Of a DNA stretch of 64,000 nucleotides, positions 120-62,143 are shown piece after piece. A program made the translations under genes and the position numbers. Under the pieces are notes generated by a model. That model was not told where the DNA came from and did no database searches. It saw only the letters and a program-made list of their open reading frames with translations. How positions within the stretch are numbered: the stretch's first letter is position 1; each line of letters starts with the position of its first letter. The stretch spans positions 930,001-994,000 of the forward strand of contig OY253678.1 of NCBI GenBank assembly GCA_958009085.1. Direction: 5' to 3'. Source of the DNA: Protoeuglena noctilucae (Eukaryota).

Positions 120-2816
120 ACTTTCCGGTGCACGGGCGCCCGCTGGTGCATGGCCTACACAGTGGTGAGCGTCATGTACTATGAACCTCATGCAATGCAT
201 GCAACCGTAAGCTAGCGTCGATCGTTGCTCCGTCGGTCCCAGTCATTGCCACCCCTCTCTCTTCCCACCCCCATTGCCACCCACTCTTCTCTCTTCCCAC
301 CCACCTGCCCCTCTCCGCGGCTCCTCCCCACCAACAACCCCTCCCTCACCCACCTATCACCCACACCCACACTGCTACCCACACCCACACCCACACCCAC
401 CCCCCCACTCTCAGTACCTCCCCACCGCCGGTCTCCTCGTCACACGCTGGCTGCTCACCTTCCTGCGCGGCAAGAGCGGCGCCTCCCGCGGCCGCCAGTC
501 GCCCTACGGCCGCCTTTTCTGGGACTGCCAAATGTCCACGGTGGTCACTAGAGCGGAGCCGCACAACCTGCAGCTGCTGCACCCCACGCAAAACCGAGTG
601 CTCACGGTGCGGGAGATGGCGCGACTCCAGGGATTCCCGGACTATTTCGTCCTGCTGTGGGGCTCGGTGGAGTATGGGCCGTCGCTGGTGCGGTCGGCGG
701 TGGTGCAGGACAGGTGAGGGGTGGGTGGGTGGGTAGATTGGTGGTTAGTGGTGGGGGTAGTGGTAAGGGTTGTAAGGGTGCTGGGGTGCAGGACAGGTGA
801 GGGGTGGTGGGTGATGGCGAGGGTGGGGGCTGTGGTGGGTGGTGGGGGTAGCATTGGCGAGCTTTTTAGTAGCAGTGGTGAGGGTGGTGGTGGGACTAGC
901 GGTGGGGCGAGGGCCGCCGTTCCCGACTCATTCCACACAATTAGTGTAATTTCCTCTCACACACCACTTCCCCTCTCTCTCCCAGGTACAACCAGATCGG
1001 CAACGCCGTGAGCCCCCCCGTGGCCACTGCGCTGGGCATCTGCATGCGGGCGGCGGCAGTGGGGGTGGCGCCGCACGGGGCGGGGGCGTCACCCTGGATG
1101 AGGGCGGTGGACCCGGAGAGGTGGGTGGGGGGATTGATTGGTGACTGGATGGATGAATGTATGAGAGAATGGTTGTTGTTGAGTATTGCATGGGATGGGG
1201 TGAAATGGGGGTGGGGTGTGTAGCCTGCCCCTCCGCCCTCTCTCCCACCACGCAGTGCGTGCGATGCGCCCCTCAACAACCCCACTCCCACACCCCACTC
1301 CCACCCCCACTCCCACTCCCACACCCACACCAACTCCCACCCCACACCCACACCCCACACCCACCCCCACTCCCACTCCCACACCCACACCCACTCCCAC
1401 CCCACACCCCACCCCGCCCGCTTCCCCAGGGTGCGATATGAGAACGACCGCGCCACTAAGAGCTTCTTCAGAACTCACATTCTGGAGAAAGGGGTCACGT
1501 ACATGGACCCATGGAGCAAGGCCACGGTCATGGCCAGGCTGGGGGACGACTACGTGCCGTGAGTGGTTGGATGATAGTTTACGTGTAATATAATTCATAT
1601 ATTAGATTTACTTTATGCTATAGTATACTAGCACTAAGCGCCAGTGTACGGATGTGATGGCGAGGCTGCCCACCGCCCACCCCCCACCCCCCTCGCAGTC
1701 ACATCAAAATCCGCGACTTTGCGCGGCTGTGGGCGGGGGTGTACCGGGCGCGGGGCGACGAAGGGCGTGCGCGCGATATGGAGAGACTGCTGGGGGTGTT
1801 TAGGGGTGCCGAGAAGCAGGTTGTGGTCAAGAAGGACCTCGAAGCACTGTGGGCGGATAAAGAGAGGTGAGGGGCGGGTGTGGGTGGGTGGTTGAGGGGT
1901 GAGGGGTGGGTGAGAGGTAGGTATGGGTTGTGGGGCGATGGGTGGGGTTGGTGTGGGTGCAACCCCCACTGCCACCCCTACTACCACCCCCACTACCACC
2001 CTCACTGCCACCCCCACTGCCACCCCCACTGCCCGCAGCTGGCAAAACAAGCCCCACCTTCGCCAGGCCGTGGAGTTGCTGTGGGCTAAGAGCATTGTGG
2101 GAGCCAAGCAAACACAGAAGGGCAAGGGTGCGGCTGTGGCGGTGGTGGATGGCGATGGGGGTGTGGTGGAGGTGGGGGTTGAGGTGGAGGGAGAGGGTGA
2201 GGGAGAGAAGGAGAGGGAGAGGGAGGGGGAGAGGGATGAGGAAAGTTGGAGTGGAGTCTCTTTGGAGGATGATAGTGATAGTGGGAATGAGGTGGAGGGA
2301 GAGGGTGAGGGAGAGGGTGAGGGAGAAGAGGAGAGGGAGGGGGAGAGGGAGGGGGATGAGGAAAGTTGGAGTGGAGTCTCTTTGGAGGATGATTGTGGTA
2401 GTGGGACTGAGGTGGAGGGGGAAAGGGAGCAGGAGAGTGAGAGTGAGAGTGAGAATGGTAGCGACAGTGACAGTGACGTCGATGTGTGGAATATGGAGGC
2501 CAGCGACATGCCAACCGTGTCGGGTGTCTCGGGCCTTGCCACACCGACCACGGATGACGTGGACAGCAACGAGCGTCGCAGTGGGGGTGGCGGGGCGAGG
2601 GCTGGGGTTGGCGGGGTGCGGGGGCGGGGGGTGAAGCGGCAGAGGGGTGAGGTGGGGGCAGAGAGGGATGTGAAGGGTGTGAAGAGGCAGGGGAGTGGGG
2701 TGGTTGCGATGAGGGGTGTGGTGATGGGGACGCGTCCGATTGAGGTTCTTGATAGTGATGAGGAGGAGGGGGTGGGGATGAGTGCGATTGAGGTTCCTGA
2801 TAGTGATGAGGAGTAG
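120..2816 (+). CDS. CMT: Chromomethylase-like cytosine-5 DNA methyltransferase, 3' part (begins before the window), with long acidic C-terminal extension
   Basis: Exons 120-164, 415-713, 986-1120, 1430-1558, 1699-1866, 2039-2816 splice in frame (GT-AG). [58 protein letters not shown] and [17 protein letters not shown] match C5-MTase motifs IX/X with the CMT-type [10 protein letters not shown] segment. Confidence 0.88.
2181..2425 (+). repeat. Coding tandem duplication in the CMT acidic tail
   Basis: GATGAGGAAAGTTGGAGTGGAGTCTCTTTGGAGGATGAT occurs twice ([13 protein letters not shown] x2) within GAGGGA-type repeats. Confidence 0.85.
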
Positions 2817-3470: not shown

Positions 3471-4989
3471 TCACTCCCTGTCCTGTGCCCCCTGCAGCAC
3501 CTCCCACGCCGTGGTCAGCCCAGGCAGCAGCGATTCAAGGCCTGAGGATCCCTTCTGAGATAAGGGGGCGCTGGGGGGGAGGGAGAAGAGGACGGGGGGT
3601 GGGGATGGTGGTAGAAGTGAGGGTGGGGTGAGTAATGGTGGGTGGGTGGGTGGGTGAGGGTTGGGTGGGCGTGGGGTGGCGAAGGGGTGGGTGATGGTGG
3701 GCGTGTGCATGGCCCTTTCGCATGCAGCGCACTATTAACCTGGCGACGCTAGTAACAAACACACAAACCCCTTGTACAATCAAGCATATTACCCTGCAAT
3801 AACATCGCAAGCGTCTCACCTTGCAACGTTGATGACCATACAAGGCCCTTATACAACCATACATAAGCACGACTGATTGCAATTCGCACATCACACACCT
3901 TGCGACGTTGACGACCTTCATGCCCGGCCCGATGTGGGAGAAGACGTCCCGCACCGTCTCCAAGTACATGACGCCCTTGTTGGTCTCGTTCATCGATTGC
4001 TGGGCGGAGATCTGAGAGGGGGCAAGGCAGAGATGAGGCAGTGAGAGGGAGGGTTGGTGGCGCTGAGAGAGGCACTAAGGAGAGGAGGATAAAATTTATG
4101 TATTATACTTTTTTATATCTACCCCAGATATACCCCACACTCGCCTTAACCTTGAGCATCTCCGCCTCCACCTGGGCCTCCCGGGCCCTACGCAGCAGGG
4201 CGCTCTCCAGCGCTTGACTCTCCATCTCGTCACTGCGACATGACACGAGAGCACGTTCATATTCATATTGATGGACATCTTCTAATATCATGTGTGATGT
4301 ACATCATCCACATCTCCGCCATCGCGACCCTCACCAGAACCGCCTCTCCGCCTTCTACACACACACATGGATCTCCACATATATAATCTAACATATATAT
4401 TCATCACCCATATCCCCTCGATCCCTCACCGGAACTGCCTCTCCGCCTTCTGCGCATGTGCATACATATCCACAAATAGTTCATAGTACATATAGCAATC
4501 GCCCACCATATTTCCACTCAAACTCACCGGAACTGCCTCTCTGCTTTCTGCGCCTCCCTGGCCGCCCTGGCCCTCGCTTCCTCCACCTCGGCCTCCACCC
4601 TCACTGCGCCCAGCCTAGTTTCCATGTCGATGCGCTGGCGCACTTTGTCCATCTCAGCCGCTGCCTCCAACTCCATGCGCTCCAATCTGGGGGTGGGGGT
4701 GGGGGTGGCAGTGGGGGTGGCAGTGGGGTTGTGGGTGTGGGTGTGAGGGAGTGAGTGGGGCGCTCACACCTCGCTCCATGTGCTCATGTCCCACTCTCCA
4801 CCCCCCACTCACTTCCTCCTCTCCTCCGCCGTCTCCTGCCGGTGCCTGGCCATGGCCATCTCCGCGTCCTGCCGCGCACGCTCCCTCTCCGCCCGCGCCT
4901 CGCTCTCGGTCTTGTCCAGATGAGTCTCGGTAGAAATGCGGCCCTCCTCCGCCTCCAGGCGGGTGCGCTCGCGGAACTTGGCCTGGTGG

Positions 4990-7954: not shown

Positions 7955-8865
7955 ATGCCGTCCAAGCTGCCGCGGCGGGCCAGGTGCATACCAGGCTCTG
8001 CCTGTGCTTTGATGCGGCACATGAGAGGCTGAGAATGAACCCAGTGGGTTCTTGCGCAGATTCGGGGTACCCTGCCACCATACCCAGCGCTGCACCATTC
8101 TCCCCTCATCGTGCCTGCAGCGCGCGGCGCCGTGGCGCCCTGGGCAAGGTCTTTGCCTTGAAGAGCGAGGGGGACTGGGAGCGCGCGACCAGGCGCGCGA
8201 ACGGCCGCTGCGTCGTGGTGCTCTTCATGGCCCCCGCGCTCGCCAGCTGCGCCAAGGCGCGGCAGGTGTTCCTGCAGTATGCCGGGCTGACTCAGTTCCG
8301 CAACCTGGTCTTCGCCGAAGTGGACCTCGAGGCGAGCAGCTGCGGGATAGTATTCGCAAGTGCAAAGCGCTGCCGCAGCGAGCGCGCGAGATTCGATCTG
8401 CTGCGCTTTGGCTTGCAGGTGTGGGACGCACCCTACCGCAAGCTGGGCGCGGCGACGGTGCCGACGTTCGCGGCGTACATCGACGCGGAGCTGCAGGAGC
8501 ACTTTTCCGGGGGCACGGCGGAGTCGCTGCTGGAGATGCTGCGCAAATACGCGCACGTGCAGGGGCGCGGAGGGGGCGCGGGCGGGCTGCTGCAGCTGGC
8601 CGCGGTGGGGCTGGTGGGCGCGGCGCTGGTGGGCGCGGCCGTGTTCGGGGTGCGCGCGCTGGGGAAAATGGACCGCGACGCAGCGCAGGCGTGGCGGGCG
8701 TCGCTGCCGCGGCGTGCGATCGAGACGGGGGGCGGCCTGCGCGTGGGCATCCGCGGCGTCGAGGCCTCCGGGGCTTCCTCGGACGAAGAAGAGACGGAGC
8801 TCGTCGGCGGATGGGACAACGAGGAGGAGGAGGAGGAGGCGGGAGCGGAAGAGGACGAAGACTAG
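7955..8865 (+). CDS. Atypical thioredoxin-fold protein (no CxxC) with C-terminal TM helix and acidic tail
   Basis: Exons 7955-7983, 8121-8331, 8419-8865; VVVLFMAPALASCAKARQVF..LVFAEVDLE..VPTFAAY follows the thioredoxin pattern; LAAVGLVGAALVGAAVFGV is hydrophobic. Confidence 0.7.
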
Positions 8866-9555
8866 CGCTTGCGTGCGCTGGCACGCCCGCGCACTGGCGC
8901 CGCGGGCCGCCGCAAGCCTACGTGTTCACCTCCTTCTCGGCCATAGTATCTTAGCGGCGGCGCACTCAGATTGCGCTGATAGGACGTGGAGGCTTCAAGA
9001 CTCCGCTCTCTGGCGCGCGGCGGCAGCGGTTGGGAGATTCCCACAGCTGGGGCTCCCTGAAGTCGATCGATTGGAAAGCAATAAGGGCGCTGCTGCTGGA
9101 CGGGCCTGGCGTGCCGCGGATCGGGCTGCACAGCGGATATTTGGCCGTCGAGTGCAGCCATGAGGGTCACGAGCCCAGATTCCCTCCCTCGTGTCAGGCA
9201 TCTGGTGTCGGCTGCGGCGGCCCGCCCCCTGCGGATGCCGCGGATGCGCGGCGTGTGCGGGTGAGACGTCCGCACGTCCTCGGGGCCTGTCGCCCCATCC
9301 TGCCCCCCGCGGGGCGCTCGCGAGATGGATTGCCGACGTTCCTGGCGCTGGAATTCCGCGGACGATTGCCTCTCGTTCCCACGGCCAGCCGCCGTGGCTT
9401 GCAGAGTCCGCTCCTCGCTCGCAGCCCCCGTGATCGTCCAACCCTCAAATGCCGTCGCGCACTACGCTCGCCGTTCATTCCGGGGCTTAGCATTCCGCGC
9501 GTCTGCATTCACGCAGGAGGGGGCCGCCGGATGGCCCGCGCTCGGCCTGCGATGC

Positions 9556-11484
9556 ATGCAGCAACGGATGCCCCTGCCATCGCGCGGGATGGGCGGCAGC
9601 CTCTCGGGCCGCGCATGCGGGGCGTCGATGCGTCCGCGCGCGTGCGGAGGACGGCGCCGGGGCCAACGGCGAGGCGGGCGCGCCGGTGTCGCGGGACGGC
9701 AGCGCGTCCGCCAGCGTGGCTGAGCTGGACGTGGACAGCTCTGCTTTGCCGGACAACTTCTGCCTTCTGGAGACGCGCGAGAGCGTCAAGGACTTCGCGG
9801 ACATGCAGCTGCAGGAGATAGAGACCAACATCCAGGTGACGAGCGCGATGGTCGTGACTGCTTGTCAGGTCGTGACTGCTTCCCCTGTGATCCAATCCTT
9901 GCTCCCGACCAACCAGCCCTCGCTCATGATGCTGTTGCCATCGATGCTGCCACCCTCACCCGTGCCGCCACCCTCGCCCGTGCCACCACCCTTACTGTCC
10001 CTCCCATCCCGCCACCCCGTTACCCTCCCCCGCCCCTCGCGCCCTGTCCCCGCAGTCCCGCAAGAGCAAGATTTACTTGCTGTTGGAGGAGTGCCGCCGC
10101 TTGCGCATCCAGCAGAAAGTCAAGGGGGGGCAGCGCAAGACGACCGAGGAGGTGAAGAAGGAGCTGTTCAGCTCAGGTGAGACCCACAAAGATAAGCAGT
10201 GCATGTGTCGTAAGCTCTCGCTCGTCACACACTGTGCTCATCATTCCCTAATCACGCGCCCTCTCCCCACCCGTCAGCCCCTCTCTGCTCTCACTCCGCC
10301 ACCCATCAGCCCTCACCACCCTAACCCCCTCCCTCTCCCCTCCCCCCAGCCCTCCCCTTCTTCCCCGAAATCTCAAAAGACACTCATTCGGTATTATTAC
10401 CTCTATTACCTCATCTACCCTCTCCCCTCCCCCCAGCTCTCCCCTTCTTCCCCGAGATCTCCGAGGAGATGCTCGACAGGTATTACCTCATCTACGCGGC
10501 CTTCTGCGTGGCGCTGCTCGGGTTCGGGGGACTAGTGGCGCCCATCCTGGAGGTCAAGCTGGGGCTGGGGGGGCAGAGGTGAGGTGTTGAGAATGGTGCA
10601 AGGTATGTGGTGTTTGCAAGGTGCATGCGGGGGTGGAGAGAGGGGCGGTGGGTGGGGGAGGAGGTGGGGGAGGTGCATGCGTGGTGTGGAGAGGGGCAGA
10701 GGGTGAGTCGCACATTGCATGGGTATCATGCAAGCGCCACTCCGGCCCTTCACAGCTGCCATGTCTTCACACCCACACCCACCCATGCACTGACTGCCTT
10801 TCGCCCCCCCTTTCGCAGCTCCCGTGACTTCATCACATCACACCCACCCCATTCATTCACTCCACCCTCGCCCCCCCTTCGCAGCTACCATGAGTTCATC
10901 ACAGCCACCCCCACCCGTGCAACACCCTCTCCCGTCGTACCCCCTTCGCAGTTACCGTGAGTTCATCACAGCCATCCACCTCCCCGCCCAGCTGGCAGAG
11001 GTGGACCCCGTAGTGGCGTCCTTCTGCGGTGGGGCCATCGGCGTCATCACCACGCTGCTCATCGTGGAGACCAACAACGTGAAGCTCAGGTGAGGGTGAT
11101 GCGGGTAATGAGTGGTGGCTGCTCATGGAAAAGGCTAACAACCTCAAGATCAGGTGAGGGCGGTGAGGCATCTGAGGGCGCGGGTGGCTGCAGGCGATAG
11201 GGCTAGGTGGCTGGAGTGGCGGCGCTGTGTTGGGCAGGCCCCGTCGTCACGCCATGCCCCGCCCATGTCCCGCCCTGCGCCCACGCAGGGCCAAGGAGCG
11301 GTGCTCCTATTGCCGAGGGACGGGATACTTGGCCTGTGGTCTCTGCGGAGGGTCCGGGCGCACTCCGGAGGGCGGGGCGTGCTCGGGTTGCACGTCCGTC
11401 GGGCGGGTCATGTGCACCAACTGCTTCGCGACCGGGAAGAAAATGACCACCGAGCACGATATCCGCCTCGATCCCTGGTCGTAG
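9556..11484 (+). CDS. OR: ORANGE protein (DnaJ-like zinc finger, plastid-targeted)
   Basis: LPDNFCLLETRESVKDFADMQLQEIETNI, LLLEECRRLRIQQ, GGLVAPILEVKLGLGG, HLPAQLAEVDPVVASFCGGAIGVI, CxxCxGxG repeats and TEHDIRLDPW end. Start inferred via a 9642-9702 intron. Confidence 0.93.
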
Positions 11485-16600: not shown

Positions 16601-19600
16601 TCTTTGTCCACAGCAGCACATCATGCGGGTTGGCCACTCGATCCACGTAACGCTGGCCGAAGCGCTGGGAGTTGATGGTGGAGAAGCCGGTGTAGTCGAC
16701 GCGCAGGCGGACCAGGGGCTGGGGGTGAGAGGGGTGGGGGGGTGTAAGTTGATGATTGATAGTGGATAGTTGACAGTTGATAGCTGGGAGTTGATGGTGG
16801 AGAAGCCGGTGTAATCCACACGAAGGTGCACGAGGGACTGAGGGTGAGGGATGAGAGGGGCTGGAGTTGATGGTTGATAGTTGATTCTTAATAGTTATAG
16901 TCATACATGTCGATGGTGGAGAAGCAGGTGTAGTCGACGCAAAGACGAACCAGGGGCTGTGACTTATAAGGGGGATTGAGAGGGGGTGAGGGGGTGAGAG
17001 GGGTGGGTGGAGTGAGGGGATGTGAGGGGTGTAGGGGTGAGAGTGAGGGTGGTGGGGGTGGTGAGGGGTGTGGGGGGCGAGGGACAAGGGGTGGAGCGGT
17101 GGGTGAGCGACAGCCCTCACCCTCACTCATCTCTGCTCTCAGATCTCTCACCAGCATGGGCTTCCCGTCCTCCCCCTCCCTCTCCCTCGCCAGTGCCTCC
17201 CCTTTAAGCACCAGGTCGTTTACCCTCCCCGCCAGAAACGCCTCCAGGGACGCGGGGTCGTCGGGGTCGATCTCAATCGCGTCCGCCAGAGTCACCGTGT
17301 CGTAGACGAAGGGCCTGGGTTGGGAAGGGAGGGGGTGGGGGGGAATGATGGTGATGGTACGGTCTCGGAAGGGCGGCAATGTATTGGAGAGTAAGTGATG
17401 CGCCGTGACGATGCAACGCGCTCTGCACGACTGCTTTGTCCAACTGCGCATTTGCAGCGATACCTGTACACCAATCAGTGCCAGTGCCACTCACCTGCAC
17501 GTCTTGAGCTGTATCTTGGTGGCCCGGTAGGCGTCCCCCCCCACCTCCAGCAGCATGCAGTGCTTGGGCTTGGACTCCCCCTCCTGCAAGGCGGTGACCA
17601 CCGTCGACCCCAGCTGGCACACGCGCGTCTCACGGCCCTCGTTGAGCAACTCCAACTCTGGGGATACGGGAATAGAGAGAAGAGGTGACGATCGTGTGTT
17701 ATCAGTGACTCTGACTCTGTGGGTATGGAATAGGAGAGAGTGACGAGAGTGACTGTGACCCCAGCTGGCACACGCGCTTCTCACACCCACCATGACCATT
17801 TCCACCCCACCATGCGTGCTCATTTAACCACCACCCCGTACCCCACTCATTCACCACATCCACACCCCACCCCTTCCCCCCCCCCCCCCCCCCACATTTC
17901 ACCCGGCAGCGACTCGTGCTCGTGCCCCCACAGCACGATATCCAGGAACCCCGGCAGGTACTTCTCCGGCACGAAATTCTTGGCCCCGTACTTCTCCCGA
18001 TTCTGGTGGACCACGAATATCGAGAAGAAATCGTCGGGACCGTACCCGGGCCCCGCGTCGCACCGCTGCCAGAACACGGTGTCAGGCGCCTGAAACGCCC
18101 GGCAAAGGCGCTCGTCGCGCATGTAGCCCAGACCGTAGAGGGCGAGGCGGGTGATGCCCTTTTCGATGAGCACGGGGGTGATGTCGATGCGGCCCTGGCC
18201 GGTGCCCTGGTGAGACGTCTGGGGGGGGGGGGGGGGGTGGAGGGTGGGGGTTAGAGGTGGGGTGTGCATAAGCGATGAAGGGAGTGGCAGTGGCTGGGGT
18301 TGCTACGGTAGCTGTGGCGACTGCGCTGTGACATGGCATGACTGCTGCATAAGCTTCACTAGCAGTGCATGGTCATAATTAGGCACGGGAACAAAGCAAC
18401 CGTGGGTATAATCTGTCCCCATCGTGTCCTCTCGCCTTCCCGAAGTAGTTGACGAGGTTGCACGCGGCGAGGATGTCGATGGCGGAGAGGTTCTCCTCGC
18501 CTGTGGAACGATGAGAGAGCCGGGGTGCGATTGCGATTGGGGTGGCACGCACGACCGATGCACGCTCATTCAGCCACGGCGCATGTGATTGCATGTAACG
18601 CTGAGCTGCGCATCAGACACAAACCCAACCCAATCAGCCAATGGCACATGTCACCAAATCACACACATGGCCCAACAGCCAGTACTGGCAAGCAAGCATG
18701 TTCTGTCAACACACCGGATGGGTCATCGTGGTTTCCGTGAACGGTGAAGACGGGGAGGCCCACGTTGACGCAGGGATCGGTGAGGTTGACCGCGCCGTCA
18801 GCCGTCTGCGGGGGAAGCCAACGCCGGGCGCATGTCTCAGCGTCAGCAGTTGGTCAAAACACTCGCAACCCAAGCGCGCGTCCCCTGGCCCGTGCCGCTG
18901 GCGCCGCGGTCTGCGTTTACCGTCCGCTGGCGCATTCCTCATACACATAACGTCTCATTCACAATAAATCTCTCGCCTGGAAGGGCCGGGCCGCGTTGTT
19001 GAGGACGCGGAAGGACACGGGCCGGTCCCCGAGGGTGTACTTGCGGAGGATCTGGATGGCCTTGACCATCGTGTCCCGCGACGGCTTGTTCTCGTGGAAT
19101 ATATCACCACCTGCGAGCCGGAAAGGCGCAGACGCCAGTCGCCGCGGCACGGGAAGCTGCGTGCTCTGGGTGCGCCCGCCCGCGCACGCGGATCGACCAC
19201 TTGCAGGGCGGTTATCATGCACGACGCTACGCTTTACATCATACTTAGCGTGAATCTGTCCGAACCCCGCCGTTGGCCTCACCGAGGAGCACGAGGTCGA
19301 CCTCCTTCTCCTGGGCCAGCTTAAACACCTCCTCGAAGGTCCGGAACGAGTCGTTCTTGCGAATCGGACATTTCTCCCAAACTCCCTGCGAGCTCGCGCG
19401 AAGGACGCGCCTCGGGCGAGGCGCGCGGCGGCCCGGTGGCCCGGCAACGCTGTGCGCAGCGCGGTGGCGATGGGATCGCGGCGCGGATGTGGTGCGGACT
19501 GCCAGCGATTCCTCATAACTGACACACGTCTCAAGTGACAGCGGAGCGCGTGGCACGGCCCCCAAGTGCGCCTTTCCGTTACAAAAGGGTCGCCAAGCTC

Positions 19601-22121: not shown

Positions 22122-27558
<5,437 letters not shown>

Positions 27559-39346: not shown

Positions 39347-42300
39347 ATGCCCAAGATGACGCGGCAGCCCTCGCAGCGCAGGTGTGACTTGCTATTCCCT
39401 GGCGGTGCCTGCCTGCGCCCGCTGACTCCCTGTCATTGCAACTGGTCACATTCCACATCCATCGTCACCGAAGCTCTTTACAAAGCTCCTTACAAACACA
39501 CGTTCCACCGTTGACGTCGTCATTCACGGTCATCATAATTACAACCATTATACCATTCCCGCCCCTCTCCCCAGGGTCAAGCCCGAGGACACGGACGTGG
39601 AGGACGGTCGCATTGCGATTGGCGAGGAGAAGATTACAGTTCAATTGGATAAGTTCGAGGAACCAGACCACGACATCGCCGACCAGACCTACAGCTACCG
39701 GTGGGTGGGATTGATTGGGGGGTGCCTGGATAGCTCATAACCCCGTCCAGCGCCTAACCGTCTGCCATCTATATCACATCACTCCCTCACTCCCCCCCAG
39801 CCACCCAGTGCACTAATTGCAGATTGGTCCCAACCCCGCGTTACCATTGCCCCATCCCACCCCCCGTCTCCCCTCCCCTGCAGCCACCCGATGTACCGCG
39901 GCCCCAACGGCGAGTTCGCGTACTTGAAACTCAACCTGGCCCCCGCGAGCCTCATGCGTCGGTTCGGCTCCGGGATATTCCTCTACTTCCGCATCGTGCG
40001 CATGCTCATGTTCCTACTACTATCCATGACCATCATGGCCATACCCTGGGTGGTCGTGATGAACCTGGGGGAGTACGAGGATGCTCAGGGCAACGCGGTG
40101 CACTTCTCGCGTCCCAAGGGGGCGCTGGGGTATGACAAAGTGTTGATTCGCACGACGTTCGGGTGGCTGGGGCAGGACTGGACGAGGACGCCGAGGGAGA
40201 ACTGGGAGGGGCTCAAGGTGAGGGAGGGGGGAGTGGGGTGCGGGGTGTGAGTGGGGGGTGCGTGGGTGTGGTTTGGGGTGGGGTGTGGGGTGGGGTGCGG
40301 GGCGTGGGTACAGCTGCTAATGCGGCTATTTGACTGTCGCAAGCAAACACGCGCGCATCCGCTGCGTCCCTCTCAGGTCGTCATCCCCCTGACAGGCCAC
40401 CGCATGGACTGTGCTTACGCAACATCAATCACAATCACAGTCACTTATCATCTGCATCTCCCTTCGTATCTCTCAGGTCGTCATCCCCCTGACGGGCCAC
40501 CGCATGGACCGCGGCGTGCTTCAGTACGTGATCGCTGGTCTAGACATGCTGGGCCTGCTGTGCTTGATGATCGCGGTGCACCAGCTGTACAAGTGGGCCA
40601 GCGAGAAGGCCGAGGAGGTGGAGGACGAGATGACGGTCACCATCAACGACTACGCCGTCATGGTCACGGGTGAGGCGCGGATGTGTGGGAATGGGTGGCG
40701 GTGAAGGCGACAAAGGACGCAGTGCGGCAACAACTATAGCCAAGCCACATCGGCAACTGCTAACAGCTAGCATGTTGCCATCCCACCCTCACCCACCCGC
40801 CCGGCTCCACATTACCACCCCACCCGCGCACCCTCAGCCCCACCCACGTACCCTCCCACCCTCACCCCACCACCTCACCTCCGCACCCTCTCACCATGAC
40901 TCCATCCCTCCCCCTCCCCCCCCAGGCCTCCCCCGCGACGCCAAGGTGGCGGACGTGCACGCGTACTTCTCGCAATATGGGGAAGTGGCCGAGGTGCAGC
41001 TGATGGCCGACGACACGCGCATCATCACATACTACAAGAAGTTCACCAAGGTGGGGGGTGATGGTGGGAATGGATGCCGGGGCATGGGTGCTGATGATGA
41101 GATGTGATGTGTTCGGTAGATAAGGAGTTCGCCAAGGTGGGGGTGGTGGTGGGAGTGGATGAAATGTTTGATGGTGCCATGGCATGGGTACCGTGGTGGT
41201 AGATGGGGAACTGGTCTCACAGGGCGGCCAACACCACATTTGTCACTCACACTCACTCACTCACACACTCACCCTCTCTCTCATCCCTCCCAGCTAGTCC
41301 TGCAGCTGGGCGTGGCCATCGCCGACCACATCTGCCACCCTTACACACACATTCACACACTCCCCCTCTCTCCCATCCCTCCCAGCTAGTCTTACAACTC
41401 GGCGTGGCCATCGCCGACCACATCTGGCGCCGCGACCGCTCCGCCCGCGTGGACAAGATCGCCAAGCGCGCGGATGCCGTTTCCAAGAAGATCGCAAACA
41501 TGCGGCAGAGGCAGGACTGGAAGGTCATTTGCGCGTTCGTCACCTTCCTCGACGTGAGGGGCGGGGTAGGGTGAAGTGTGTTTGTTTGGATGTGTAAGGT
41601 TGTGCTGCGTGTGTGGGGAGATGCGGGGGGGTGGGCGGCGGCAACGGCAGAGTGTATCGCACGGTGGGGCCCAATGTTTTGCCTGCCTCATTGCTCCCAA
41701 GCACCTCACCATCTCCCCACCCCTCGCATTGCTACTCCCCACCCACCCCCCACGACCCACCTCCCCACCTTATCACCCACCCCTCCCCTCATCACCCCAG
41801 GCTCAATCGAAGGAGGCCTGCATGGAAGATTTGAAATGGCAGGGCCTGTGGGGGTGGGTGGCGCACTACTGCTGCATGGACGAGGAGAAGAAGTTTCTGA
41901 ACAAGCACGTGCTGGCGGTCACCTCCCCCGTGTCGCCCGCCGACCTCATCTTCGAGAACCTCAGGTGAGGGGGAGTGTACATGTACAGATCACTTGTGGC
42001 CCTCGCTACGTCTTGCACACCACAAACATTCCCCTTTCTTGCCGCACACCCTCCCACCCTTCCCCCATTCTCCTTACCCCTCTCACCCCCCTCCCCACCC
42101 TCTCCCAGGTTCCACTGGGTCGAGCTAACACACATCACTTCTCACACCTCTCACCCCTCTCACCCCCCCCTCCCTCACTCCCAGGTTCCACTGGATCGAG
42201 CTCGCCCTGCGACGCACCCTCGCGACGACCATCGTGGTCATCCTGCTGCTGGGCAACGTCGTCCTCGTGTCGTATCTGAGGAGCCTATCTACTAGACTCG

Positions 42301-50548: not shown

Positions 50549-53958
<3,410 letters not shown>

Positions 53959-60000: not shown

Positions 60001-62143
60001 CTCTGCCGCCGCACCCAGCGCACGACCCCGCATGCCCATCGAGCTGTCCCCTTCTGTATCCTCCCTCCCAACCTCCACATCCTCCACAGCCACCTCCACC
60101 ATCCCATCCCCACCCTGCACGTTGCCACGGCCGCTCCCGCCGTCGTCGCCCCGGCTACCCCTCCCCCGCTCCCGCTCCCGCTCCCTCGCCCGCCCGCGCT
60201 CCCTCGCACGCCCCCGCTCCCGCCGCCGCTGCTGCGCCTTCTCCCTGCTGCTCTTGTCGTCGTCCTCTCCCAACGACCGCTGTCGCGACTGCTCCGATCC
60301 ACGGGACGAGTTGTTCTCTTTCACTAGGTACTTGTCGCGGGGGAGGGCGTCGCGGCGGCGGGTGTGGCCGTTGGCGGGGGTGGCGGGTGATGCGGCGCCG
60401 CCGTTGGATGCTTGGCTGCGGGAGGGCGCCTGGTGGGGGGGGTCGGACCTGTGGGGGGTGAGGGGTGGTGATGGTGAGGGCTGGTGGGGGATGGCGCAGG
60501 TAAGTGTGTGCGTGTTGGTATGCACCTGAGCTGCAGAGCCCTTTACCTGAATGGCTTGGGGAGTAGCCTCATGGGCGATGCTCCCTGGCAGTGCATAGCT
60601 ATACACGATAGGCACATACGTGTTGACATCTATCTCACCTGAATGGCTTGGGAAGTAGCCTCGTGGGCGACGCTCCCTGGCAGTCAGCGCGTAGGAGTGC
60701 GGTGAGCCACGGTCGGTGGGTGGCAGAGAGGAAGGCGTGGGCGGAGAGGAGAGAGCACCCTAAGAGGGCGAAGATGCCGAGGAGAGCGGGGGCCGCAGGG
60801 TCCCAGGGGCTGCCCACCTGGGGAGGGAAGGGAGGGAGGGGTGGTGAGACGTGAGGGTGCGAGGTGAGAGGTGACAGGTGAGGGTAGGGTGGGAGGAGGT
60901 GGTGGGTGTGAGGGGTGCAGGGATGGTGAGGAGTGAGCGGGTGGGGTGAGGAGTGCAGGGCGAGGTGAGAGAGCAAGAGAGATGGGGCACGGGCCAGTGC
61001 GGGTGCGAGACTGCCCGTAGGGGTGGGACCGCATCGGCAGCCACGTGATATGATGAATCGTCACTGCGCTGCCCTCGCCGCGCCTGAGATCGGCCCCGCG
61101 GCGCTCACCAGGTCAGAGTGGTCGAGGTGACAGGCGGCGTGGGCGTGGAGAGACGAGGCAGAGGCTGCGAGGAGGGCCAGGCAGATGGCCCAGGCGGGTA
61201 GACCGATACATAGACATGCGGCAGATGACATGGCGCGGCGAGAGTACGATGCTTGGAGCCACGTCGCGCCATCGAAAGATCCAGGTGCGGTCACGAGGGC
61301 CAGCACGACGGCCGAGACGCCGAAGAGCGCCGCGGCCGCTCCCTCGAGCGCCGATGCAGATCTCCCGCGGAGTAGTCGCGAGGCACTGCCCTGCGGGGGG
61401 TCAGGCGAGCGGCGGGGCTGCAGCAGCCGACCGATGGGGACGGTTAGGTCGCGCGGCGGGCGGTTTGGCGCGGAAGGGGGGCGCGGCGTTTACGGCTGCA
61501 CAACAGCTGTATAAGCTGCATATTGGACGGCTCTGCGACCCACCGAAGAGGAGGCGCATAGGGAAACGAGCATACCCCCCGTGCTCCTGTCCACCAGCCC
61601 TGCCGCCGCGCATGCGAGGACGAACGCCACCCATGCGATCGCGTTGGAGAACAGCAGAAGGATCTTGTGCAGCTGCGAGGGTGCAGATTCGCGAATGGGC
61701 CACGGCGCGCGCGCCCCGTCCAGCCTAGATGCGAGGGCATCCGAGGCGCTCGCGCCACGCGCACCAAACGACACGCGAGGCGTTTGAGCGTGAATGTGAC
61801 ATGTATGTATCCGGCAGACAAGCCACTGCGCGCCGGGAGGATGCCGGCGCAGGACACAAGGCTGCTGCTCCGGAGATATGCTGGGCTCACCAGCGGCAGG
61901 CCGTGGAAGAGCGCGAGTTCCGTCGGCACCGTCTCGCCTGGAAACCCCGCAAGCTCCGTCGCGTTGTCCTGGACCCAGATGATTAGGCGCAGCGGCATCT
62001 GGTGGGCGCGCAGGAGGACATGGCCGTCCCTGACGATCTGCGGGAGCACAACGCGAGTAGGGGTCCACCGTGACCAACACGTTTCGCCACAAAGGCATCA
62101 TCGCGGGCGGCGGCCAGGGCCTAAACTGCGGAAGGCGGTTCAT
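57016..62143 (-). CDS. Large unknown protein: N-terminal multi-pass membrane region, long disordered C-terminus; 5' end uncertain
   Basis: Hydrophobic exons (KILLLFSNAIAWVAFVLACAAAG, ALFGVSAVVLALV, AWAICLALLAA, ALLGIFALLGCSLL) then long S/R/G/P/M-rich exons (~59292-60430, 58131-58681, 57016-57741) bounded by splice sites. Confidence 0.6.

Follow-up and report, generated by a model that had tools for sequence, protein, structure and literature searches.

Introns that run from G-rich to C-rich in a 64-kb stretch of green algal DNA: probably two splice-site-linked zones rather than ends built to pair

We analysed the introns of a 64-kb stretch of DNA from Protoeuglena noctilucae (contig OY253678.1, positions 930,001 to 994,000 of the forward strand; the whole stretch is called the window below), starting from those of a chromomethylase-like (CMT) gene at its beginning. 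Most of these introns open G-rich and close C-rich. A preliminary description of the window had proposed that the two halves of such introns pair and bring the splice sites together, as in structured introns of teleost fish. We find that the polarity is real and statistically strong, and no sign was found that the intron ends were shaped for pairing.

The GC content ranges from 0.59 to 0.71 along the window, and short GT-AG intervals are numerous. The first 20 kb are matched by contigs from four marine metatranscriptome runs, which belong to one study with at most three samples. Similarity to the window is at least 99% for 63 of the 75 contig records and 95–99% for the remaining 12. Among the joints listed, at least 15 intervals that begin with GT or GC and end with AG are skipped by the RNA contigs. 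Contig pieces together with their loose ends give three further introns, 9261–9516 (+), 17658–17902 (−) and 10177–10436 (+). As the window is intron-rich, is spliced in RNA and carries a chlorophyte-like CMT gene, it is nuclear DNA of an intron-rich marine green alga.

The intron set comprises 86 members, 18 supported by RNA, four in the CMT gene and 64 from a purpose-written gene finder that was self-trained on the window. For eight of the 64, which lie in copper amine oxidase, DUF4464, short-chain dehydrogenase and band-7 genes, Pfam profile positions continue over the predicted joints, and with these the best-supported introns number 30. Of 20 known introns the gene finder reproduced 13 exactly, and its tier is accordingly noisy. 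The introns are short and GC-rich, with a median of 197 nt and a GC content of 0.605. GC-AG introns are frequent: two of the 18 RNA-supported introns, 4012–4144 (−) and 8332–8418 (+), and 13 of all 86, the 11 others being predicted. The GC-AG share in eukaryotes is usually about 1%, and the share in the window is far above this.

The CMT gene lies on the plus strand and contributes the following features.

415..713, plus strand: exon of a chromomethylase-like C5 DNA methyltransferase, motif IX region (Pfam PF00145 DNA_methylase, E 6.8e-07)
714..985, plus strand: CMT intron, GT..AG, with frame continuity and a homologue across the joint; GC skew +0.88/+0.04 (5′/3′ half)
1121..1429, plus strand: CMT intron, GT..AG, supported by the frame; GC skew +0.27/−0.98 (5′/3′ half)
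1279..1415, plus strand: tandem array (CCCACT)n in the 3′ part of intron 1121–1429, found by Tandem Repeats Finder
1559..1698, plus strand: fourth CMT intron, absent from the earlier list, an interval that the reading frame needs; GC skew +0.29/−0.20
1867..2038, plus strand: CMT intron, GT..AG, supported by the frame; GC skew +0.96/−0.69

Exon 415–713 is matched in tblastn by chlorophyte CMT-like proteins at 54–58% identity, and a piece of an RNA contig lies over 416–652. The best matches to this exon are named CMT or bear PF00145. The closest database proteins are chlorophyte and plant chromomethylase-like proteins at 54–59% identity, none of which is the window's own protein, and a metagenome search with the CMT exon returned only four distant relatives (42–57% identity). 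The 5′ part of the gene lies beyond the window, and an RNA loose end at 119 means that the transcript extends upstream. Excision of the four introns yields a single open frame ending at 2816. The 713|986 joint is spanned by aligned chlorophyte chromomethylase-like proteins.

Three of the four CMT introns had been described before. Their coordinates are exact and their GGGGTG/GGTGG openings are confirmed. Closing CACCCC/CCCACT tracts had been ascribed to all three; two of them end in CCCAC-type tandem arrays. Intron 714–985 is G/T-rich over about 200 nt, about three quarters of its length, and then has only a short C-rich tail. Intron 1121–1429 has a G/T-rich start (1115–1223) and a C/A-rich tandem array at its 3′ end, with 21.5 copies at period 6 and 2.3 copies at period 60 (94% matches); the higher-order periods are 12 and 60. 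Intron 1867–2038 is divided into a G/T-rich half, 1867–1957, and a C/A-rich half that consists of (TGCCACCCCCAC) × 6.3 at 1958–2033. Tracts of this kind are tandem arrays by nature. The fourth intron, 1559–1698, is weakly polarised and has a C-rich tract at 1666–1698.

Two further repeats were observed in this gene. The end of exon 415–713 with its 5′ splice site (GGTGCAGGACAG|GTGAGGGGTGG, 702–724) recurs as an exact 23-nt copy at 785–807. This echo donor sits 83 nt within intron 714–985, and its use would shift the reading frame. In the last CMT exon, a 120-nt unit is repeated 2.1 times at 90% identity (2169–2419, +) and encodes a Glu/Gly-rich acidic stretch.

The polarity extends through the window, as the preliminary description had claimed. 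For the half-skew counts, 10 nt were cut from each intron end because the acceptor matrix of the gene finder covers the final six bases of an intron. The 5′ half has the higher GC skew of the two in 16 of the 18 RNA-supported introns, in 20 of 22 when the CMT introns are included, in 27 of 30 with the Pfam-continuity introns and in 78 of all 86 (binomial p 1.5e-15). For random intervals of equal lengths the fraction above zero is 0.486. Mean skew falls steadily over the intron deciles from +0.41 to −0.61. The C-richness of the 3′ part is the more general component, with negative skew in the 3′ half of 71 introns and positive skew in the 5′ half of 55. At least three GGG occur in the first 40 nt of 21 of the 86 introns, and at least three CCC in the last 40 nt of 44. 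The reversed layout is almost absent: at least three CCC in the first 40 nt were found once, and at least three GGG in the last 40 nt never.

The halves had been characterised as G/T-rich and C/A-rich. T is 0.24–0.27 at the 5′ end versus 0.19–0.22 at the 3′ end, and the share of A is nearly the same at either end. Since T and A hardly differ between the ends, the polarity is on average one of G versus C. Tracts built of G and T or of A and C (K/M tracts) reach a density of 2.9/kb in introns, 1.05/kb in exons and 0.57/kb in intergenic DNA. Within introns they are bound to position, the G-type with 17 in 5′ halves versus 1 in 3′ halves and the C-type with 31 in 3′ halves versus 4 in 5′ halves. 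G/T-rich tracts are also seen in exons, nearly always in the sense orientation (21 versus 2).

Both zones are anchored at the splice sites, as seen in the 56 introns of at least 160 nt. The skew is +0.10 in the last 10 exon nucleotides, rises to +0.71, +0.46 and +0.43 over intron nucleotides 1–30, and decays to the exon level (+0.13 to +0.20) by nucleotides 40–70. G is 0.38–0.41 and C 0.15 at nucleotides 11–30, versus 0.36 and 0.29 in the last exon bases. On the other side, the skew is −0.30 at −80, reaches −0.66 and −0.64 at −30 to −11, and is −0.05 in the exon. C is 0.51–0.56 and T 0.20–0.22 at −30 to −11. Between −60 and −31 the share of A is 0.22–0.24; between −20 and −11 it is down to 0.10, and C+T is 0.78. 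This profile matches a branch-site zone with, behind it, a pyrimidine tract in which C replaces U.

Outside the CMT gene, the following introns were followed individually.

3571..3898, minus strand: polarised intron of a band-7/flotillin-like gene, RNA joint in four runs of one study; GC skew +0.35/−0.72
4233..4527, minus strand: intron G-rich in both halves and without a C tract, RNA joint; GC skew +0.56/+0.42, no CCC in the last 60 nt
4687..4812, minus strand: polarised intron, unambiguous RNA joint in four runs of one study; quarter skews from +0.80 to −0.84
10177..10436, plus strand: intron C-rich throughout and without a G tract, RNA-supported (loose ends 10176 and 10434 fit the flanking exon ends); GC skew −0.48/−0.82
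17658..17902, minus strand: intron with a G-rich 5′ half and a moderately C/T/A-rich 3′ half, RNA-supported (an exon piece starts at 17903 and a loose end maps to 17643–17657)
24081..24297 (or 24081–24273), minus strand: polarised intron of a copper amine oxidase gene, from the gene finder, with Pfam profile positions continuing over the flanking exons
40218..40476, plus strand: polarised intron of a membrane-protein gene, homologue P0121 aligned over the joint; GC skew +0.67/−0.38, the 5′ 95 nt strongly G-rich
41554..41800, plus strand: polarised intron of the same membrane-protein gene, ab initio model only; GC skew +0.60/−0.81

RNA-verified intron 3571–3898 contains one GGG versus seven CCC. 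Several intervals proposed earlier are refined by these data. The intron placed at 4688–4811 is real, and its RNA joint gives 4687–4812. The interval 17780–17900 is indeed G-rich but is merely the 5′ half of the RNA-defined intron 17658–17902, for which RNA also corrected the gene-finder version 17658–17854. A polarised intron was rightly seen at 24083–24295, with bounds that are 24081–24297 or 24081–24273 depending on which of two in-frame donors is taken. Intron 40218–40476 gains support from its homologue, and 41554–41800 is polarised as stated, its interval coming from the gene finder alone. The interval 60430–60960 is not one intron; it starts C-rich and contains internal junction-like sites of the form ..CAG|GT... 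It had also been argued that in minus-strand genes the polarity is oriented along the transcribed strand. This is necessarily true, yet it has no evidential value, because a G-rich-then-C-rich unit reads alike on both strands.

Some local features of these introns were recorded alongside. Intron 4233–4527 holds an internal tandem duplication of about 100 nt, both copies of which end in GGTGAGGG, and intron 17658–17902 starts with a run of 19 G (17870–17895, −). The two donors of the copper amine oxidase gene both read GTGAGAG and are 24 nt apart (24273/24274 and 24297/24298, −), the alternative one lying 24 nt downstream in the transcript with an exon ending at 24274; the preliminary description took one of them and the gene finder the other. 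Near-copies of the 3′ splice site and the first 25–30 or so exon bases are found about 90–100 nt upstream within the own intron, at 10342–10375 versus 10431–10460 in intron 10177–10436 and also in 40218–40476. They look like local tandem duplications that include the acceptor.

The pairing interpretation is supported in part. The ends can pair because G complements C, and in silico they do, the 60-nt ends of polarised introns forming duplexes of about −41 kcal/mol; tests that look beyond composition failed or gave weak signals. Nucleotides 7–66 were paired with the last 66–7 nt in the 68 introns of at least 132 nt. For the 21 introns polarised at both ends, the native duplexes have −41.4 kcal/mol and the cross-paired ones −42.8 kcal/mol (mean row percentile 0.53, p 0.85). 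Native halves of polarised introns therefore pair no better than halves from other polarised introns, which is the first of the two results that the preliminary description itself had named as speaking against pairing, and complementarity specific to the single intron is absent from this group. Base pairs between the first and last thirds of polarised introns number 30.9 versus 10.9 in whole-intron dinucleotide shuffles (p 1.5e-4), and the difference from shuffles that preserve the halves (33.1) is not significant. Nor are the splice sites predicted to come closer, as had been supposed: the path from one to the other is not shortened, with 20.5 steps versus 12.5 and 13.1 in shuffles.

The CMT introns behave differently from one another in folding. 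Intron 714–985 folds worse than its shuffles, with a minimum free energy (MFE) of −88.3 versus −96.8 kcal/mol (z +1.99), and 197 of 200 shuffles fold at least as well. Intron 1121–1429 has z −0.91, with 17 of 100 shuffles at least as good. Intron 1867–2038 is predicted as one long hairpin from nucleotide 8 to nucleotide 170, and its z is just −0.64 against half-preserving shuffles. The 67 folded introns outside the polarised set have a z of −0.72.

The G tract and the C tract are independent of each other. They occur in the same intron in 11 of 86 cases versus 10.7 expected (Fisher p 1.0), and the skews of the two halves correlate with r +0.16 (p 0.15, 86 introns). No G-tract partner is present in 33 of the 44 C-tract introns. 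Introns with a single type of tract are spliced in RNA, as in 4233–4527 (G throughout) and 10177–10436 (C throughout). Array units at the opposite ends of one intron can be mutually non-complementary, for example GGGTGGTTGAGGGGTGAG versus TGCCACCCCCAC.

We consider it somewhat likelier than its negation, with a probability of roughly 0.55, that these introns carry two independent composition zones, each linked to one splice site and inflated by slippage, and are not built to pair end to end. They would be ordinary spliceosomal GT-AG introns (some GC-AG) of a GC-rich green alga with two independent signals, one per splice site. Directly behind the 5′ splice site, some 40 nt that are rich in G and poor in C would act as a G-run intronic enhancer zone, whose reader may be an hnRNP F/H-type protein or U1. 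The C-rich, G-poor zone of at least 80 nt before the 3′ splice site would be the equivalent of a branch-site region and polypyrimidine tract. Both low-complexity zones would have been expanded by replication slippage into micro- or minisatellite arrays such as (CCCACT)n and (TGCCACCCCCAC)n. The predicted end-to-end fold of two-tract introns arises because G is the complement of C, and would be a by-product of composition rather than a selected bridge.

Both elements have known counterparts. G-rich and C-rich motifs are intronic enhancers in GC-rich human introns, as reported by Murray et al. 2008 (PMC2481429), and 16% of the highly structured human introns treated by Lin et al. 2016 (PMC4691745) have at least three GGG in the first 40 nt together with at least three CCC in the last 40 nt. 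The algal introns resemble such short GC-rich human introns in their G triplets just downstream of the donor and C triplets just upstream of the acceptor. They are also alike in a small excess stability, −113.85 versus −111.47 kcal/mol for shuffled sequences in human and −63.5 versus −60.3 in the alga. Unlike the human case as given in these sources, the algal tracts are often long tandem arrays, and co-enrichment was not detected in the 86 introns. According to Labadorf et al. 2010 (PMC2830987), introns of Chlamydomonas reinhardtii show C enrichment rather than a polypyrimidine tract at their 3′ end. Our alga is likewise a GC-rich green alga with introns of about 200 nt and C instead of a U-rich tract. 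The G-rich 5′ zone, the tandem arrays and the end-to-end complementarity go beyond the available part of that account. By analogy, the polarised algal introns would fit the known G-run/C-rich architecture of GC-rich introns: enrichment of G triplets and of C triplets is found at the respective ends, and enhancer action may be shared.

The tracts might instead have no function. A slippage-prone GGGTG/CACCC motif would then expand anywhere in introns, and purifying selection would purge only the harmful orientations, namely G runs close to the acceptor and C runs close to the donor. We regard this as an unlikely account, though one with several observations in its favour. The tandem arrays have high copy identity, which indicates recent expansion, and the same duplex motif is present in both orientations. 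Tract load is uncorrelated with donor strength, and G-run count does not compensate for weak donors (rho 0.04). Tract content rises only weakly with intron length (CCC rho 0.21, p 0.047). Expansion of this kind is hard to reconcile with the mean skew, which shows an abrupt shift at each splice site and fades away from it in array-free introns too, or with C enrichment in most introns (the 71 with a C-rich 3′ half). The C-rich 3′ ends that are general in Chlamydomonas introns (PMC2830987, as far as its available part goes) point in the same direction.

Several observations weigh against the reading of two independent zones. Over all 68 introns of the duplex test, native pairs have −32.5 versus −29.9 kcal/mol for cross pairs (additive-model residual −2.6, p 0.0055; row percentile 0.415, p 0.028). 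The MFE of 83 introns is 0.86 standard deviations below that of dinucleotide shuffles (−63.5 versus −60.3) and 0.73 below that of half-preserving ones (−60.7). For 16 polarised introns it is −79.8 versus −73.9 (z −1.46), and versus −75.9 with halves preserved (z −0.95, p 0.04). Intron 1867–2038 has −101.8 versus −90.0 (z −2.18), with 3 of 200 shuffles as good. The odds ratio for tract co-occurrence is 1.22 with a 95% interval of 0.40–3.8, so that the window is compatible with up to about four-fold co-enrichment, and among the 30 best-supported introns both tracts occur in 6 versus 4.2 expected (p 0.24). The sample is itself a point on this side. It is a single 64-kb window, 56 of the 86 introns come from the gene finder alone, and the acceptor matrix, which covers the last 6 intron bases, may prefer sites behind C tracts.

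The motifs at the two ends belong here as well. The top hexamers are exact reverse complements of each other, GGGTGG/CCACCC, GGGGTG/CACCCC, GTGGGG/CCCCAC and GGTGGG/CCCACC. G runs are interrupted by T and C runs by A: GGTGG is present in 24 of 86 introns versus 5 for GGAGG, and CCACC in 40 versus 21 for CCTCC. A plain pyrimidine tract would predict T, not A, between C runs. A bridge between the ends would explain these mirror motifs. One slippage-prone duplex motif in two orientations may also explain them, and so may a strand-symmetric G-to-T change within G runs, appearing as C-to-A on the other strand.

Such a bridge would be a helix in which the G/U-rich start of a two-tract intron pairs with its C/A-rich end and keeps the 5′ splice site near the branch site and the 3′ splice site. 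As with the (AC)m-(GT)n introns of zebrafish, the helix may take the place of proteins that recognise the 3′ end. We hold this to be quite improbable. It can draw on the large duplex potential of the 60 × 60-nt ends, the surplus of long-range pairs over whole-intron shuffles, the single hairpin of intron 1867–2038, the reverse-complement motifs and the small native-pair advantage over all introns. The GGG-start and CCC-end arrangement of structured human introns, four times above chance (PMC4691745, in the part available), is a further point for it. Set against these are the missing co-enrichment of the tracts, the lack of a native advantage among polarised introns, the equal pairing of half-preserving shuffles, the unreduced distance between splice sites, the poor fold of intron 714–985 and the partnerless or single-tract introns described above. 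Pairing would also bury a C tract that is left unpaired in most introns. In human LCAT intron 4, where C-rich motifs were swapped for G-rich ones and the possible stem was abolished, splicing stays wild-type according to the accessible text of PMC2481429, so that the equivalent stem is dispensable there.

The comparison with fish, on which the earlier proposal leaned, does not carry over well. In zebrafish structured introns, AC repeats follow the 5′ splice site and GT repeats precede the 3′ one (Lin et al. 2016, PMC4691745). In the same source, these repeats co-occur above independence, the introns exceed dinucleotide shuffles in stability by about one third (−88 versus −66), and splicing depends experimentally on the repeats, without U2AF2. 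The algal introns share with them complementary simple repeats at opposite intron ends (in the 11 two-tract introns), a predicted intron-spanning hairpin, and repeats that overlie the branch-point and pyrimidine-tract region. They differ from what is reported there in their reversed layout, in showing no co-occurrence signal, and in a stability gain over dinucleotide shuffles of only 5–8% (83 introns and 16 polarised introns, respectively).

A role of G-quadruplexes or R-loops is very unlikely. In this case, G-rich non-template DNA and RNA downstream of the donor, and G-rich template DNA upstream of the acceptor, would affect transcription or co-transcriptional splicing. Canonical quadruplex motifs on the sense strand are found in the 5′ half of 9 introns and in the 3′ half of none, and antisense motifs in the 3′ half of 27. 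When quadruplex energies are included in the folding, RNA quadruplexes are predicted in introns 714–985 (−155.0 versus −88.3 kcal/mol) and 40218–40476 (−140.4 versus −114.3), and they would compete with any duplex. Enrichment of quadruplexes at human splice junctions is known from Georgakopoulos-Soares et al. 2022 (PMC9065059); in the accessible part of that work both strands are enriched at the 3′ splice site, whereas the sense strand of algal 3′ halves has no motif in 86 introns. The full motif is moreover confined to a minority of introns, and 33 sense motifs lie in exons too.

An origin from introners or from miniature inverted-repeat transposable elements (MITEs) is rejected: the G-rich-then-C-rich layout resembles an inverted repeat, but an all-against-all blastn search among the 86 introns, run under the low-complexity filter, yields one non-self hit (55 nt, 78% identity) and thus no shared complex sequence, and all 224 hits of the unfiltered search fall within simple tracts.

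The idea that the G/T tracts serve mainly as arrays of decoy 5′ splice sites was likewise set aside. At least one pseudo-donor is present in the 5′ part of only 19 of the 86 introns and at least three in one, and their density of 3–3.9/kb is close to the 3.3/kb of the antisense strand. In another part of the window, a divergent pair of histone-fold genes is without introns (51053–51361, −, and 51617–52024, +). One of the two encodes a core histone (PF00125, E 2.8e-48), the other a shorter protein with a histone fold.

G-run and C-rich elements are already known from GC-rich introns of humans, and a C-rich 3′ end is known from Chlamydomonas, in the portions of those papers available. In the literature surveyed, which did not cover subscription journals, only the C-rich 3′ end was found for green algal introns, and no G-rich 5′ zone or end-to-end layout. 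We see a slim chance that in about one eighth of the introns, those with both tracts, the duplex is a working bridge that replaces protein recognition of the 3′ end. If so, structure-dependent spliceosomal introns of the zebrafish kind would have arisen independently in an alga, with the GGTGG start and the CCACC end as the footprint of the bridge. The alga would give a second independent system for testing whether RNA structure can take over splice-site pairing, in introns that are short and minigene-friendly. If there are only splicing-signal zones swollen by slippage, the introns would be a clear but ordinary case of a GC-rich genome recoding its intron signals, with C standing in for U ahead of the 3′ splice site and with G runs behind the 5′ one. 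They would then also be a practical warning for gene finders and repeat maskers that are applied to such algae.

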